Source: Escherichia phage vB_EcoM_SD350. Taken from it: DNA of 52,757 bases. This document shows positions 4,565 through 44,495 of this stretch, piece by piece. Position numbers and translations under genes: made by a program. Numbering within the stretch: the first letter of the stretch is position 1; each line of letters opens with the position of its first letter. The notes beneath the pieces are model-generated. The model saw nothing but the letters and a program-made list of their open reading frames with translations. It was not told the origin of the DNA and ran no database searches. The DNA is taken from sequence record OR911937.1. One strand, written 5' to 3'.

Positions 4565-5062
4565 GTGGGTAACATTATGAAAATTGTTCAATTAGAGCCA
4601 TATCCGCCTCAATTGGCTATTGTTTGTAGTGAAAAAGAGCACGAAGAGCTCCAAAAACTGATGGATTTGCCTGATTTTGGCAACTGGAATGACCGAGAAA
4701 CGCGTACTGCATCTACCTATACGTTCACTCGCGTTAACTACCCGTATCTGTTAATCGTCGTCGAGCTGTACCACCCGGACGACCTGAAGTACAACACCAT
4801 TTCCCACGAAGGCATTCACGTAATGTCAACGCTGATGAACTATGTTGGCCTTAAATACGACCCGGAAAACGATGAATGGTACGCATATCAGCATGATTTC
4901 ATCGTAAATGCCATTTGTAAGGCCCATGACGAGTACATTGAGCGCCAAAAAACGCCAAAAACTAAGCCAAAAATCGAAACAGGTAATCATCCTGCTATAC
5001 TGCCACAAGACGTAATGAACTCGCTTTTGACTGACACTACTGGGGACTTTTTAGGTGATTAA
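4565..5062 (+). CDS. hypothetical protein with HExxH motif (possible small zinc metallopeptidase-like)
   Basis: 165-aa ORF with HEGIH; start may be GTG at 4565 or ATG at 4577. Confidence 0.45.
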   Translation: MGNIMKIVQLEPYPPQLAIVCSEKEHEELQKLMDLPDFGNWNDRETRTASTYTFTRVNYPYLLIVVELYHPDDLKYNTISHEGIHVMSTLMNYVGLKYDPENDEWYAYQHDFIVNAICKAHDEYIERQKTPKTKPKIETGNHPAILPQDVMNSLLTDTTGDFLGD

Positions 5063-5729
5063 TATAATCTTTGCAATGGGCCAAAATGGGGAATTCGGGT
5101 TATCTCCGGAGTTTATGAAGCATCAGGTTGACTCGTGCAAGACCATGGAAGAGGTTCGTGCGCTTCCTAAATCGGGTCTGCCCTGGAAATGTCCGTCAGA
5201 CATGCTCTTTTTCAGGACTATGACTAATTCAATTGCGACAGAACCAGGCTATAATGCATATCAGCAGCTACGTGGACAATTCCCAAATGGCCAGTTGCGA
5301 AATATGATAGCAGATGTAACGGTAAAAATGGTCGGGCATAGTGTATTGTTAGCCGGTCGTAACACGTATATGACTATGAGTCTGCCTATGTCAGCCCACA
5401 GAATACTGCTGCCGGTATCTCGCCAGATTATGGCTTCAGAAGGCTACAATAATCTGGGTGAGATGGCCGCAGACCTTGAGTCCAGAGGTACTGACGTCTG
5501 GATTGTAGGTGGTGCCGAGTTGATACTTTCGGCCCTTGAAGAACACGCAAAAGACTTACTCCGTATCGACAACATGTTTATCAGTACAATCAAGCAATCA
5601 GGTCCAAGTGATATTTTAATGGATCGTAGCAAATTAATGATGTACATTGATAGCGACTTCACTTATAATGATGAATATGTTGATAACAAACAAGTTCTGA
5701 TACAACGGTACAGGAGTTTACACAAATGA
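5055..5729 (+). CDS. dihydrofolate reductase-like protein
   Basis: Motifs IIFAMGQNGEFG, LPW, LLAGRNTY..SLP and VWIVGGAEL in the order seen in DHFRs; GTG start overlapping the upstream stop; longer than typical DHFR (224 aa). Confidence 0.55.
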   Translation: MINIIFAMGQNGEFGLSPEFMKHQVDSCKTMEEVRALPKSGLPWKCPSDMLFFRTMTNSIATEPGYNAYQQLRGQFPNGQLRNMIADVTVKMVGHSVLLAGRNTYMTMSLPMSAHRILLPVSRQIMASEGYNNLGEMAADLESRGTDVWIVGGAELILSALEEHAKDLLRIDNMFISTIKQSGPSDILMDRSKLMMYIDSDFTYNDEYVDNKQVLIQRYRSLHK

Positions 5730-6232
5730 ACATCATAATCGAGGGGCCCGACAATGCTGGTAAATCTACACTTATTGAGTTCCTTAAATCTCGTACTGGC
5801 CGCAATGTTATTCATAATACTGTTGATAAAGACCCCGAATCGGTCATGGCTAAACAGGCCAAAGAAAACTCGTTGGAAGGCGATTGCATTTATGATCGTA
5901 GCGCTGTTATATCTGAGTATATCTATTGCCTGGTTCTTCAACGTACGCCTGTCATCAATATTAATGTATCACATGTAGCAGATATGTGTGACAACGCTAT
6001 CGTTATCTTTTGTATGCCGCCTGTTGAAAAGGTACTGGCAACTACAAAAGACGAAATGCCTGGTGTTGTGGAAAATCTTGAGGCGTTATACAATCAGTAT
6101 GACAACCTCATTGACGAGCTGGTTATGATGAGTAAGCAGTTCTTCATTTACGACTGGACTGTTGAAGAAGACGGTCCTGAAGCAGCTCTCGAATATATCA
6201 ATGAACGTATTAATAAGGAGTGGAACAAATGA
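5726..6232 (+). CDS. thymidylate-kinase-like P-loop nucleotide kinase
   Basis: IIIEGPDNAGKST P-loop and a DRS segment resembling the Tmk DR(Y/H) motif; 168 aa. Confidence 0.5.
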   Translation: MNIIIEGPDNAGKSTLIEFLKSRTGRNVIHNTVDKDPESVMAKQAKENSLEGDCIYDRSAVISEYIYCLVLQRTPVININVSHVADMCDNAIVIFCMPPVEKVLATTKDEMPGVVENLEALYNQYDNLIDELVMMSKQFFIYDWTVEEDGPEAALEYINERINKEWNK

Positions 6233-37489: not shown

Positions 37490-38374
37490 TTATACGGCCA
37501 TTTGGAGTTTGATGTTTGGCATTGGTTTGTACTTCTCAACCATTGGCGTAACATCGGCAGGAGTGAAGTCAAACACTGACACGTCATAAATTGCATTAAT
37601 GTCAGGACGACCTTCAAAGTTAGTGTCCAGTGTAGTATCAGAATTGCTTACGATACGTTGCAGGAAAATCTTTGCCGCATCGATATGATTCTGATAGATG
37701 TGATAATCACCCAGCGTAACAGTCATATCACCTACCCCAGTACCCAGCTCAGCAGCAATGGTAATCTGCAACATCTGATGCAGCAGAATATCGTGAGGCA
37801 GGCCAAGAATAACATCCGCGCTACGCATGTGGAACATCAGCTCTAACTCATTACGGTTATTAATGAACAGCTGAAAGCCATGGTAACAAGGCGGAAGGGC
37901 CATGGCGTCCATCTCTTGTGGGTTCCATGCCGTAATGTATGCCCGGCGGTCAGTAGGCTTAACCTTCAGCGTTTCAATAACATCTTTAAGCTGGTTAGTA
38001 AGAACACCATTCTTATAGAATGGCTTAATCCATTGCACGCCGTACACAGGACCTAAGTCACGGTTGTCTGGCGTACCCCAACGTTTGTTTGCGTCCTGCA
38101 GGTTACCTTCCCACCAGTTGCAGCCAAAGCCTTTTAGCGTGTCGACGTTTGAAATACCGTTGATAAAGCAGTAAAGCTCAGCAGCAACAGCTTTGATGTT
38201 AACAGGCTTAAACACCGGCACCATCAGTTTGTTGTCGTTGAAAGCCAGCTTAAATGCTGTACCAAAACAACGGCGGGTACCAACACCTGTACGGTCTACA
38301 ACATCCTCACCTTTACGCAGGATAAAAGAAATGATGTCGCTGTAAAGAGAATCGACAGTGCTGTATGTTTTCAT
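37490..38374 (-). CDS. thymidylate-synthase-family pyrimidine C5-modifying enzyme, predicted dCMP-specific
   Basis: DRTGVGT, LGPVYGVQW, DRRAYITAWN, ALPPC (catalytic Cys), GDYHIY align to ThyA motifs; LGLPHD has Asp where ThyA has Asn177 (LGLPFN); Tyr follows the catalytic Cys instead of His. Confidence 0.75.
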   Translation of the reverse strand: MKTYSTVDSLYSDIISFILRKGEDVVDRTGVGTRRCFGTAFKLAFNDNKLMVPVFKPVNIKAVAAELYCFINGISNVDTLKGFGCNWWEGNLQDANKRWGTPDNRDLGPVYGVQWIKPFYKNGVLTNQLKDVIETLKVKPTDRRAYITAWNPQEMDAMALPPCYHGFQLFINNRNELELMFHMRSADVILGLPHDILLHQMLQITIAAELGTGVGDMTVTLGDYHIYQNHIDAAKIFLQRIVSNSDTTLDTNFEGRPDINAIYDVSVFDFTPADVTPMVEKYKPMPNIKLQMAV

Positions 38375-38967
38375 TAAAACAGTTCCTTTTGAGCCGGGTT
38401 AACGTGTGCGTCGATGATGGACTGGATGTCAGGTGCTTTCCACCCTTCAGGCTTAACAATATCCTGACCAGACTTATGCTTGCTGTTGCTTGCATCAGGC
38501 TTAGCGCGTTCTTTCGCCATGTTAGCAGCCTGTACCGCATCCCATGCTGCGTCAAGTGGCCAGTTATTGTTTGCACACCAGGTAATCAGGTGGATAATTA
38601 ACTGGGCCAGACGGTCGCAATGAGTGTCTTCAGTATCCTTAACATATACAATAAGGCCATCAGCATCGAAACGGTCCATAAATCCGCATGGCGTAGTTAA
38701 CAGAATCGGATACTCAAATTCGTTGGTGAACCATGCAGTCTGGTCATACAAGTATAACGTACCTGCGGCAATGTAAATTAAATCTACAATACCATCTAAG
38801 AAGCCAGCTTTGTCGCCGTCCTTCTTAGCTTGTTTAATTTCTTCCATCTCCTCAATAAGACGGTCGTAACGAAGCTTGAACTCAGGTTTACCGCCTTGAC
38901 TAACAGGCTTGAGGTCAAACTTCTCATGAAAAGCGGTAACGCCTGCAGCAATTTTACTGAATCGCAT
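38374..38967 (-). CDS. MazG-like all-alpha NTP pyrophosphohydrolase
   Basis: 197 aa; acidic helix RLIEEMEEIKQA...DGIVDLIYIA typical of MazG-like pyrophosphatases; adjoins the TS-family gene. Confidence 0.5.
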   Translation of the reverse strand: MRFSKIAAGVTAFHEKFDLKPVSQGGKPEFKLRYDRLIEEMEEIKQAKKDGDKAGFLDGIVDLIYIAAGTLYLYDQTAWFTNEFEYPILLTTPCGFMDRFDADGLIVYVKDTEDTHCDRLAQLIIHLITWCANNNWPLDAAWDAVQAANMAKERAKPDASNSKHKSGQDIVKPEGWKAPDIQSIIDAHVNPAQKELF

Positions 38968-42540: not shown

Positions 42541-43419
42541 TTATTTTAAGGAAAGTTTAACGGGCTTCTCATCCTGCGGGAAGACATCAGCAGGGCGATA
42601 ATCATCACAAGCTGCTAATTGCTCTTCGAGTGTTTCGAGTTCTTTCTGGTGCTTGTTGCAATACCACACTTTGCCCTGAAGCGGTTTACTGTAATGGCAG
42701 GTTCTGCAGTTCCTGTCTGGCATTGCTCCTTTGTGGCACAGGTGATGGTATTCGCACATCCCTGGTTTGCACTCCCACCAAATAGGCGATTCAGAAATCT
42801 TCGGCATATCCAAACCAGATTCCGCATATACAACAGCCTCCGCTTTACTCAGTTGTATGTCGCTTTCCAGTAAGTCAATCTCGACCACCTCAAAATACAT
42901 CTCGTCGGTGTTCTTATTGATTGCGATGTACACAGCTTGATTCAGCTTAAGCTTCCGCATGTATACCTGCATCTGGGCATAGTGTACCGGCTTACTTGCT
43001 TTAACAGACTTGAGCTTGACTAACTCTTTAAACGACTTATCGCCATGCGTCTTGAATTCAGCAAGTGCCCATACGCCTTTGTATTTAATTACACAGTCAC
43101 AAGACCCAGAGAAGATGCCATTGAATTCGTGTATGCGCCACTGCTTACCAGTCTTGGGATTGACGTCCAGCACTTCGTCACATACGGAACGAAGCCACTT
43201 TACAATTCTGCTTTCTTCAAGGTTACCACGTTCAAACAGACGAAGTTGCTTAGCTGTAAACTTCTCCTTGAACGACCAGTGCAGAACGTGCCAAAGATAG
43301 CGATAGCAGTTGTGTCCTATCTGTGATGCTCCAAGATGCCCGCGTCGTTCTTCTCTTTCGTGGGCTTCAACTATCTTGATGTCAATACGTTTCTGCAGGT
43401 CGTCAAACGGACTTGGCAT
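42541..43419 (-). CDS. PD-(D/E)xK exonuclease, RecB/Cas4-like with Cys cluster
   Basis: EFK and QMQVY nuclease motifs plus C-terminal Cys cluster (CKPGMC, C, C..C); start set at MPSPFDD (GAGGAG upstream), not the track start 43536. Confidence 0.55.
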   Translation of the reverse strand: MPSPFDDLQKRIDIKIVEAHEREERRGHLGASQIGHNCYRYLWHVLHWSFKEKFTAKQLRLFERGNLEESRIVKWLRSVCDEVLDVNPKTGKQWRIHEFNGIFSGSCDCVIKYKGVWALAEFKTHGDKSFKELVKLKSVKASKPVHYAQMQVYMRKLKLNQAVYIAINKNTDEMYFEVVEIDLLESDIQLSKAEAVVYAESGLDMPKISESPIWWECKPGMCEYHHLCHKGAMPDRNCRTCHYSKPLQGKVWYCNKHQKELETLEEQLAACDDYRPADVFPQDEKPVKLSLK

Positions 43420-43888
43420 TGTTAAACTCCTCAACGCTGAATTCATCGTACACAATATTATGAGCCCACAAGTGAGCGACGGCATTTGCCATGCTGTCCT
43501 TCCATTTGGATTGAGAAGCGGTATGTGCCAATGCAACTACACGTACCAGGTTAAGGTTGGCTATCAGCATGTCAGCACAATGTTCGCACGGCGGGTAGGT
43601 TATGTAGATGGTAACCGGGCCTAAAGAAGGAGTGTCTAACTCACTCCTTATGTTAGCTAAGGTGTTTATCTCGCTATGAATAGTTAGAGCGTTCTTAAGG
43701 CTATTAGGCACTATTCTTATAGAGTCTAGCTGCGTAGGTAGACCGTTATATCCAGTGGAAATGATACGCTTGTTCTGGTCCACAAGAACGCTACCGACTT
43801 GACGTTTAGGGTCCTTCGACCAGCTCGCAACTTCACAAGCTATGCGCATAAACCGCCTATCCCACTTGTCCATCTTCTTCTTTTGCAT
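43403..43888 (-). CDS. dCMP deaminase-family zinc deaminase
   Basis: 161 aa; HSE and PCEHC zinc-binding motifs of the cytidine/dCMP deaminase fold. Confidence 0.65.
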   Translation of the reverse strand: MQKKKMDKWDRRFMRIACEVASWSKDPKRQVGSVLVDQNKRIISTGYNGLPTQLDSIRIVPNSLKNALTIHSEINTLANIRSELDTPSLGPVTIYITYPPCEHCADMLIANLNLVRVVALAHTASQSKWKDSMANAVAHLWAHNIVYDEFSVEEFNNAKSV

Positions 43889-43910
43889 GGTAGTCTCCGT
43901 ATACGAAAAT

Positions 43911-43926
43911 AGGGGCCGAAGCCCCT
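43911..43926 (-). other. intercistronic GC hairpin with UUCG tetraloop, second copy
   Basis: AGGGGC-cgaa-GCCCCT; on the transcript followed by AUUUUCG and a GGAGAC ribosome-binding site before the deaminase ATG. Confidence 0.45.
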
Positions 43927-43949
43927 ATTGAATATCTACTCGGCAGGGA

Positions 43950-44495
43950 TTATTCTTCCCAAGGAGCTGCTGCACCGTCGTCAGCACCAGGTGCCGTTGC
44001 AGTAGCACTCGCCTTCGTTGAAGTACCCGCACCTGCACCTACTTTCTTCGTCGTCGATGCAGTTGCTTGAGAATGACCACCTACTGCAGTAGTTGCTTCA
44101 GTTGACGCTTTGTATTCGCGAATATCGTTCTGCGGATCGTATTCACCGGTCTTGTCGATACGAACACCAACTTTACCAGCTACAATACGGTTTTCCAGTA
44201 AGTCGGTAGAAGTCAGCTCAACAATACCCAGCGCACGACACAACGCAGACAGTTTGCGATGACCGATTTCAACAGCTTGCGCATTAGGGTTGGAGTAGGT
44301 AATCATGTCAAATACAACACGGTTAGCGAACTCACCTTCCTGCACTTTCAGACGCAGGGACAGGTAAGAACCAGTGCCTGCTTTAGTCGGCTTCAGCTCA
44401 ACCTCTTCAATCATGAAGTTGTACCAGCCTTTCGGGATCGGGTCAAAAGACTGTTGCGGTTCGACGGTAGAGCTGTTGAAGTTTAATTCAGCCAT
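43950..44495 (-). CDS. hypothetical protein, possible ssDNA-binding partner of the ATPase
   Basis: 181 aa, beta-rich N-terminal domain plus Ala/Thr/Gly-rich acidic tail ending PWEE; family guess (DUF669-like) from memory. Confidence 0.4.
   Translation of the reverse strand: MAELNFNSSTVEPQQSFDPIPKGWYNFMIEEVELKPTKAGTGSYLSLRLKVQEGEFANRVVFDMITYSNPNAQAVEIGHRKLSALCRALGIVELTSTDLLENRIVAGKVGVRIDKTGEYDPQNDIREYKASTEATTAVGGHSQATASTTKKVGAGAGTSTKASATATAPGADDGAAAPWEE

Follow-up and report, generated by a model that had tools for sequence, protein, structure and literature searches.

The DNA of phage Xp12 carries 5-methylcytosine (5mC) in place of all cytosine, and in phage T4 a dCTPase, a dCMP C5-transferase and a dCMP deaminase work together, the deaminase converting unmodified dCMP to dUMP. 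Here we describe a deaminase gene of Escherichia phage vB_EcoM_SD350 and the enzymes encoded with it, in a 52,757-nucleotide stretch of record OR911937.1 (the window). By megablast, this genome belongs to Rosemountvirus, a Salmonella and E. coli myophage group with genomes of ~52-53 kb; 45 records match 80% or more of the query, and phage LPSEYT is 98.6% identical to it in the deaminase region. We propose, with confidence and doubt evenly balanced, that the phage encodes a pathway of the T4/Xp12 kind that replaces cytosine ahead of DNA replication, and that the deaminase is its pyrimidine branch point and acts on both dC and 5-methyl-dC nucleotides.

In the Xp12 genome, three adjacent genes encode a thymidylate synthase (TS) homologue (LPYD, Asp-type), a 'dCMP deaminase' and a dihydrofolate reductase (DHFR). 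The passage on XP-12 in PMC12088426 states that its deoxycytidylate deaminase (DCTD) converts 5-methyl-dCTP to dTTP "independently from the host", and cites Wang & Ehrlich 1982 and also Kuo et al. 1982 ("A new thymidylate biosynthesis..."). PMC12088426 also gives 5-methyl-dCMP and 5-hydroxymethyl-dCMP as substrates of DCTDs, the human enzyme among them, and names W128 in XP-12, W121 in PBCV-1 and Y153 in T4 as the aromatic residue in contact with the methyl group. The dU-DNA phages PBS1, PhiR1-37 and DSS3_VP1 have DCTD-family dCTP deaminases that were formerly annotated as dCMP deaminases; those of PBS1 and PhiR1-37 are dCTP-specific, that of DSS3_VP1 is promiscuous, and among phage enzymes of this family, which include dCTP- or dCDP-preferring cases, the phosphate-binding residues are not conserved (PMC12697855). 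The deaminases of the dU-DNA phages contribute to the making of dU-DNA alongside dTMP/dTTP hydrolases, whereas neither a signature of such a hydrolase nor a TS-less logic was seen in the query phage.

The query protein is 33% identical to the Xp12 deaminase (QNN97213.1) over its full length (E 7e-23; 161 residues against 158 in Xp12). The two have in common the fold family, the motifs, the Trp at W128/W129 and a co-encoded Asp-type TS homologue and DHFR. On the other hand, the Xp12 genes are contiguous, whereas those of the query phage are dispersed. The query TS homologue is of the canonical lineage, with LPHD and a TS-like C-terminus, whereas that of Xp12 has LPYD and a different C-terminus. 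Unlike the Xp12 deaminase, the enzymes of the query clade carry a 5-residue insertion (SELDTPSLGP) before strand β3.

The T4 deaminase Cd (1VQ2), like the query, is a zinc deaminase encoded alongside a dCTPase (inferred in the query phage) and a dCMP-specific TS homologue, and the allosterically controlled branch-point role of Cd is the likeness that we propose for the query. However, the match between the two is weak and partial (E 3e-7, residues 69-138), and T4 has a second metal site in Cd and its own true TS, whereas the query phage has neither. The best PDB sequence match is the PBCV-1 dCMP/dCTP deaminase 7FH4 (E 6e-11; fold TM 0.72-0.82), which is also a short, single-metal DCTD with a conserved C-terminal Trp, but it is 23% identical to the query in the structural alignment, and pre-replicative replacement of cytosine is not known for the chlorovirus. 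Human DCTD (2W4L), the top fold match (E 1e-13), shares GYNG and a single catalytic Zn with the query, yet it is 25% identical and is a cellular housekeeping enzyme.

The deaminase gene and its place in the DCTD family

The deaminase gene is real, is under strong purifying selection and has an intact zinc site. Against three Rosemountvirus relatives, the ratio of nonsynonymous to synonymous substitution rates (dN/dS) is 0.04, with dS of 0.2-0.5. A preliminary description of the window had placed the gene in the dCMP/cytidine deaminase family by its HSE and PCEHC motifs. Both motifs are present (residues 71-73, codons 43670-43678, and residues 100-104, codons 43577-43591), and membership in the family is backed by Pfam (PF00383, dCMP_cyt_deam_1; E 3.3e-21, 75.5 bits, cut-off 25), by PHROG_174 'dCMP deaminase' (E 6.1e-37) and by PDB sequence matches that include, besides 7FH4, human DCTD (1.5e-10), the S. 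mutans enzyme (5e-8) and part of T4 Cd.

By motif, H71, C101 and C104 are the Zn ligands and E73 is the catalytic residue. In a 31-sequence alignment that spans down to 29% identity, these four residues are invariant, together with S24, G32, G46, N48 and N75; the preliminary description had named the loss of the ligands as an observation that would speak against its assignment. The TGYNGLP segment (residues 45-51) contains G46-Y47-N48-G49, in which Y47 and G49 are kept in at least 90% of the aligned homologues. W129, which aligns with Xp12 W128, is the aromatic residue next to the substrate C5 according to the PDB and Xp12 alignments. GenBank relatives already label this open reading frame 'deoxycytidylate deaminase' or 'dCMP deaminase', so the gene call is not new, and the deaminase taken by itself is an ordinary, already annotated member of a known phage family.

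The features that define DCTDs are HxE, PCxxC and the allosteric G(Y/W)N(A/G), the last of which contacts the deoxyribose (PMC12088426), and all three are found in the query as HxE, PCxxC and GYNG. An AlphaFold2 model of the monomer (mean pLDDT 91.5, pTM 0.87) was compared with the PDB by Foldseek, and ranks 1-14 were occupied by dCMP deaminases only (human, PBCV-1, S. mutans and the cyanophage S-TIM5; E 1e-13 to 1e-7). Yeast cytosine deaminase and TadA followed (E 1e-7 to 1e-6), and APOBEC3H came with E 8e-5 and TM 0.44. Judged by motifs and by this predicted fold, the protein belongs to the DCTD family (IPR016473, PF00383 branch). The family named in the preliminary description was thus right, and it is narrowed to the DCTD branch by GYNG, by the fold ranking and by the failure of the models for TadA, ComEB and dCTP deaminase. 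The NCBIfam equivalog model for TadA scored 27.2 bits against a cut-off of 150, and that for ComEB (TIGR02571) 32.9 against 219. The model of the two-domain anti-phage dCTP deaminase (NF041025, 437 positions) scored 40 bits against 400, with the deaminase core alone matching.

Pfam models of the AID/APOBEC clade scored just above their cut-off of ~27 on residues 59-157 (SNAD4 32, APOBEC3 30 and APOBEC2 29 bits). These scores would favor a polynucleotide-editing deaminase, APOBEC- or TadA-like, that acts on DNA or tRNA for mutagenesis or counter-defence, an explanation to which we assign almost no probability. The marginal matches reflect the common fold and lie far under the 75.5 bits for PF00383, and TadA has 27 bits against a cut-off of 150. 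In the fold search, TadA and APOBEC3H trail the dCMP deaminases by 6 to 9 orders of magnitude; the DCTD-specific GYNG is present and the SWS-PC motif is not. An AID/APOBEC identity was therefore rejected. As a side observation, the APOBEC-clade scores on the C-terminal two-thirds of the deaminase could mislead automated annotation.

The T4-Cd subfamily was rejected as well. The second structural metal site of T4 Cd consists of C19, C49, H94 and E102 (PMC12697855). The query has three Cys in total (C18, C101 and C104), and Thr69 stands at the position of E102 (alignment of residues 69-138 with 102-169), so this site cannot form. The deaminase therefore falls among the DCTDs with one metal site, the type found in human, PBCV-1 and Xp12.

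Partner enzymes and the proposed pathway

What is new here is the context of the gene, a putative complete nucleotide-level cytosine-replacement module in genomes for which published papers report a plain "thymidylate synthase". Aligned without gaps to thymidylate synthases of solved structure, the single TS homologue of the phage has RSADVILGLPHD where these enzymes have RSADLFLGVPFN, and its Asp195 stands at the position of E. coli ThyA Asn177 (GLPHD, against GVPFN in ThyA). The N177D change (N229D in L. casei) is an experimentally established switch of specificity from dUMP to dCMP, and Asp179 has the same role in T4 dCMP hydroxymethylase (PMC8670742). The Rosemountvirus relatives keep this Asp, as does the Loughboroughvirus-like phage vB_SE1_KM, the TS homologue of which is 62% identical. 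The preliminary description had claimed a dCMP-specific C5 transferase for this genome, and this residue bears the claim out.

The TS homologue keeps R28, E66, W88, Y111, R143/R144, C163, R184, D187, H225 and Y227, of which C163, E66, R184, D187 and H225/Y227 are equivalent to the catalytic Cys, Glu58, Arg166, Asp169 and His207/Tyr209 of ThyA. It also keeps the full TS C-terminus (...IKLQMAV), with a Pfam match over positions 3-266 of 266, and its closest relatives outside the clade are the true td enzymes of T4-like phages (33-37% identity). By these alignments, it looks like a switched canonical TS and not like a member of the Xp12 or T4 gp42 lineage. In TS, the C-terminal segment closes over the active site; T4 dCMP hydroxymethylase lacks it, and hydroxymethylases release tetrahydrofolate (THF), so that they need no DHFR (PMC5175136). 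The retention of the C-terminus together with a phage DHFR thus favors methyl transfer, with 5-methyl-dCMP as the predicted product; the homologue is probably a dCMP methyltransferase, and a hydroxymethylase is less favored. The other partners are a MazG-like pyrophosphohydrolase, a DHFR homologue and a thymidylate-kinase-like (Tmk-like) dNMP kinase. A second TS, ThyX, dUTPase or ribonucleotide reductase (RNR) was not found in the window by single-sequence phmmer, a search of limited sensitivity.

The partners of related deaminases were compared. The closest homologues outside Rosemountvirus and Loughboroughvirus (P0015 and P0021, 43-46% identity) lie in Xp12-type cassettes with the order PRA-PH, TS(LPYD), deaminase, DHFR. 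The best outgroup matches (41-46% identity) include two verified cassette members, and the similarly close L034 and L027 accompany an Asn-type TS; lower-scoring homologues (34-37% identity) have ThyX/RNR, DNA-pol-A or T4-like surroundings. Where a TS homologue lies within 10 kb of a deaminase homologue, it is Asp-type at 16 loci and Asn-type at 3, in a biased sample. The Xp12-type partner set (Asp177-type TS homologue, DHFR and NTP pyrophosphohydrolase) is entirely encoded in the query genome, non-contiguously.

In the pathway that we propose, the MazG-like pyrophosphohydrolase would convert dCTP to dCMP, the Asn177-to-Asp TS homologue would methylate dCMP using methylene-THF, the phage DHFR would recycle dihydrofolate, and the Tmk-like kinase would begin re-phosphorylation. 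The deaminase would channel some of the dC nucleotides towards dU and dT nucleotides by two routes: one from dCMP to dUMP, with host ThyA completing the synthesis, and one that, as in Xp12, takes 5-methyl-dC nucleotides straight to dT nucleotides. The direct conversion would be open because DCTDs do not exclude the C5-methyl group, and in this pathway 5-methyl-dCMP would be a major pool and there would be no true phage TS. As a family, DCTDs form homohexamers that dCTP activates and dTTP inhibits. At the GYNG site, feedback by (5-methyl-)dCTP and dTTP may set the ratio of T to modified C. E. coli and Salmonella have no DCTD and make dUMP mainly via dCTP deaminase (PMC12088426). The phage dCTPase would starve this host route, and thymidylate flow would therefore need the phage deaminase. 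All substrates, the flux direction, the mode of regulation and the presence of 5mC in virion DNA are predictions of the pathway.

One alternative is that the deaminase works as T4 Cd does and no further: it would take unmodified dCMP to dUMP, host ThyA would make all dTMP, and 5-methyl-dC nucleotides would be insignificant in vivo. dCMP deamination is the default activity of the family in Pfam, PHROG and the fold search, the same set of dCTPase, dCMP C5-transferase and dCMP deaminase has its precedent in T4, and the cut that the phage dCTPase would make in the dUMP supply of hosts relying on dCTP deaminase (PMC12088426) would create the need for such an enzyme. However, T4 brings a true TS (td), and none was found in the query genome. 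Moreover, DCTDs usually accept 5-methyl-dCMP, the exclusion of which would need a special adaptation, and the nearest homologues sit in Xp12-type cassettes. We consider this alternative a serious contender, though clearly less probable than the two-route pathway.

Substrate choice and hints of DNA modification

The sequence itself cannot choose among dCMP, 5-methyl-dCMP and 5-methyl-dCTP as the substrate of the deaminase. The preliminary description had called the direct conversion of 5-methyl-dC to dT speculative; given the Xp12 precedent and the acceptance of 5-methyl-dCMP by DCTDs, this option is less speculative than was held there. A stricter parallel to Xp12, in which the deaminase is specific for the triphosphate and makes dTTP directly from 5-methyl-dCTP, appears unlikely to us. 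The identity to the Xp12 enzyme, the closest outgroup in Xp12-type cassettes and the 5-methyl-dCTP specificity that PMC12088426 gives in its passage on XP-12 speak for it. On the other hand, the assignment in Xp12 itself consists of extract work of 1982 and sequence inference, and the TS partner is of another lineage, closest to the true td of T4-like phages. A hand count of Lys/Arg, made as a guide to mono- or triphosphate preference, found fewer of them in the query than in Xp12, both in the loop that follows GYNG and in the one ahead of the conserved Trp; it is at most a weak sign.

Several observations bear on whether cytosine is replaced in the DNA. In phage S144, a related Loughboroughvirus, the DNA resisted all 7 of the 7 tested enzymes with G/C-containing sites and was cut by SspI and PacI only (PMC7432712); beyond these restriction data, no reported DNA modification for Rosemountvirus was found in the literature searched. 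The domains PF00303 (TS), PF01503 (PRA-PH) and PF00383/PF14437 (dCMP deaminase/MafB19) co-occur specifically on modified-cytosine metagenomic contigs (PMC8670742), and exactly this set is found in the query genome. In the window, all-G/C palindromes occur at expectation (observed/expected 0.96-1.02), while GATC is strongly under-represented (33 observed, 163.5 expected; ratio 0.20), GATATC is absent (14 expected) and CTAG occurs 39 times against 76. This pattern fits DNA that is protected at C but not at sites read through A/T, and is suggestive only.

The same observations bear on a further explanation, in which the phage has unmodified DNA or uses the TS homologue as a hydroxymethylase that feeds another modification, and the deaminase raises dTTP for a genome richer in A+T than that of the host or makes 5-hydroxymethyl-dUMP from 5-hydroxymethyl-dCMP. 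The GC content of the window is 46%, and that of Salmonella and E. coli is higher. Many phages with an ordinary TS or ThyX carry homologues of the deaminase, and a McrBC+ K-12 host is listed for the Rosemountvirus CF2. We nevertheless regard this explanation as very improbable, since the Asp at N177 is conserved across Rosemountvirus and Loughboroughvirus, S144 DNA resists cutting at G/C-containing sites (PMC7432712), GATC is avoided and all-G/C palindromes are not, and a TS-type C-terminus and a DHFR are present.

The proposed two-route pathway with 5-methyl-dC as a substrate has a number of points against it. The pathway genes are scattered at 5 kb, 38 kb and 43 kb and form no cassette, and the TS homologue also carries F176H and H147Y changes. 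W129 was rejected as a marker of 5-methyl preference: its position is conserved in almost all of 84 viral homologues, including those next to an Asn-type TS, and since it is kept whatever the TS type, it gives no sign of 5-methyl specificity. The phosphate-level preferences of phage DCTDs vary (PMC12697855), which makes the substrate phosphate level of the query unpredictable. In the literature searched, we found no biochemical or DNA-composition data for any Rosemountvirus. The CF2 record (KY608966.1) lists E. coli K-12 MG1655 as host; this strain is McrBC+ and should restrict a genome in which every C is 5mC, barring a countermeasure of the phage. The same CF2 record is filed under Tequatrovirus and marked UNVERIFIED. 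In another record, PP583539.1, a 'Listeria phage' is 96.5% identical to the query phage, and its host is probably mis-assigned or its sample contaminated.

Gene neighbourhood and meaning for the phage group

The positions of the deaminase gene, its neighbors and its proposed partners are collected in Table 1. The preliminary description saw the deaminase gene as embedded in a recombination/replication operon, and this holds, as the gene lies on the same strand as, and between, the genes for a single-strand DNA-binding protein (SSB) and a Cas4-type exonuclease. In the order of transcription, the minus-strand block runs through Sak4, SSB, deaminase, Cas4-type exonuclease, helicase and further genes, followed by the MazG-like hydrolase, the TS homologue, a clamp-like factor and DNA polymerase.

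Table 1. Positions in the window of the deaminase gene, its neighboring elements and the genes of its proposed partners
Feature	Position	Strand	Description	Basis
DCTD-family deoxycytidine-nucleotide deaminase, coding sequence	43403..43888	-	161 aa, ATG to TGA	Open reading frame list, Pfam, PHROG, PDB, alignment, AlphaFold2, dN/dS
GGAG Shine-Dalgarno / ribosome-binding site	43895..43898	-	6 nt upstream of deaminase ATG	Read from sequence
Hairpin AAUAGGGGC-UUCG-GCCCCUAUU then UU	43906..43929	-	Between SSB stop and deaminase start	Folding
SSB gene	43950..44495	-	Directly upstream of deaminase	
Cas4-domain (PD-(D/E)xK) exonuclease gene	42541..43419	-	ATG overlaps deaminase 3' end by 17 nt	
TS homologue, predicted dCMP C5-methyltransferase	37490..38374	-	Asp195 codon 37790-37792 at ThyA Asn177 position	
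MazG/PRA-PH-type nucleotide pyrophosphohydrolase	38374..38967	-	Inferred dCTPase, analogous to T4 gp56	
DHFR homologue	5055..5729	+		PHROG_316 2e-26
Tmk-like dNMP kinase	5726..6232	+		PHROG_761 6e-26

The overlap of the deaminase and exonuclease genes suggests translational coupling. The exonuclease frame stays open upstream to a TTG at 43536, inside the deaminase gene (42541..43536, 331 aa); the start in relatives is the ATG at 43419 (292 aa), and the vB_SE1_KM record has a longer form with a 143-nt overlap with the deaminase gene. In Salmonella phage UPF_BP2, the 4-kb query region is spread over 5.8 kb in 4 pieces and a Cas4/YqaJ-type exonuclease is annotated twice, which suggests an insertion of ~1.8 kb, possibly a mobile element or an intron, near the exonuclease or the deaminase gene. 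In phage KE24, an HNH endonuclease gene (PP856723.1 51289..51804; L085 2290..2805) lies between the DHFR and Tmk-like genes, which abut in the query.

Between the SSB and deaminase genes, folding revealed a hairpin with a 9-bp G+C-rich stem, a UUCG loop and a short U tract. At the same place, vB_SE1_KM (L084 8957..8985), the deaminase of which is ~65% identical to that of the query, has a hairpin whose loop is likewise UUCG, whose stem differs in sequence and which ends in a tail of 5 U. Compared across these two phages, the hairpin appears to be kept as a structure and not as a sequence. A consensus terminator scan did not call it, so that its support comes from the folding and the vB_SE1_KM structure. 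The hairpin is probably an attenuating terminator, which would lower expression from the stoichiometric SSB to the downstream enzymes.

Taken together, the N177D TS homologue, the deaminase, the DHFR, the MazG-like hydrolase and the kinase point to a probable Xp12-like 5mC/thymidylate pathway in Rosemountvirus and Loughboroughvirus, which we did not find described in the literature searched. A bolder form of this proposal, tentative and doubtful even to us, is that both groups put 5mC in place of C by means of a recently recruited canonical TS with a natural N177D switch, and that the deaminase makes all phage thymidylate from 5-methyl-dC nucleotides, independently of host ThyA. If so, 5mC and T would both come from a single folate-dependent enzyme, in an enterobacterial re-invention of the 'new thymidylate biosynthesis' of Xp12. 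The authors of the S144 study saw a cytosine-type restriction resistance and found no gene responsible for it; the present module, with its probable dCMP methyltransferase, would explain this resistance. Rosemountvirus and Loughboroughvirus phages are widely used for biocontrol of Salmonella and E. coli. If confirmed, the pathway would provide a tractable E. coli/Salmonella model for the poorly characterized thymidylate route of Xp12, and would bear on the sequencing, cloning and restriction typing of biocontrol phages and on their sensitivity to defence by McrBC and other type IV systems.

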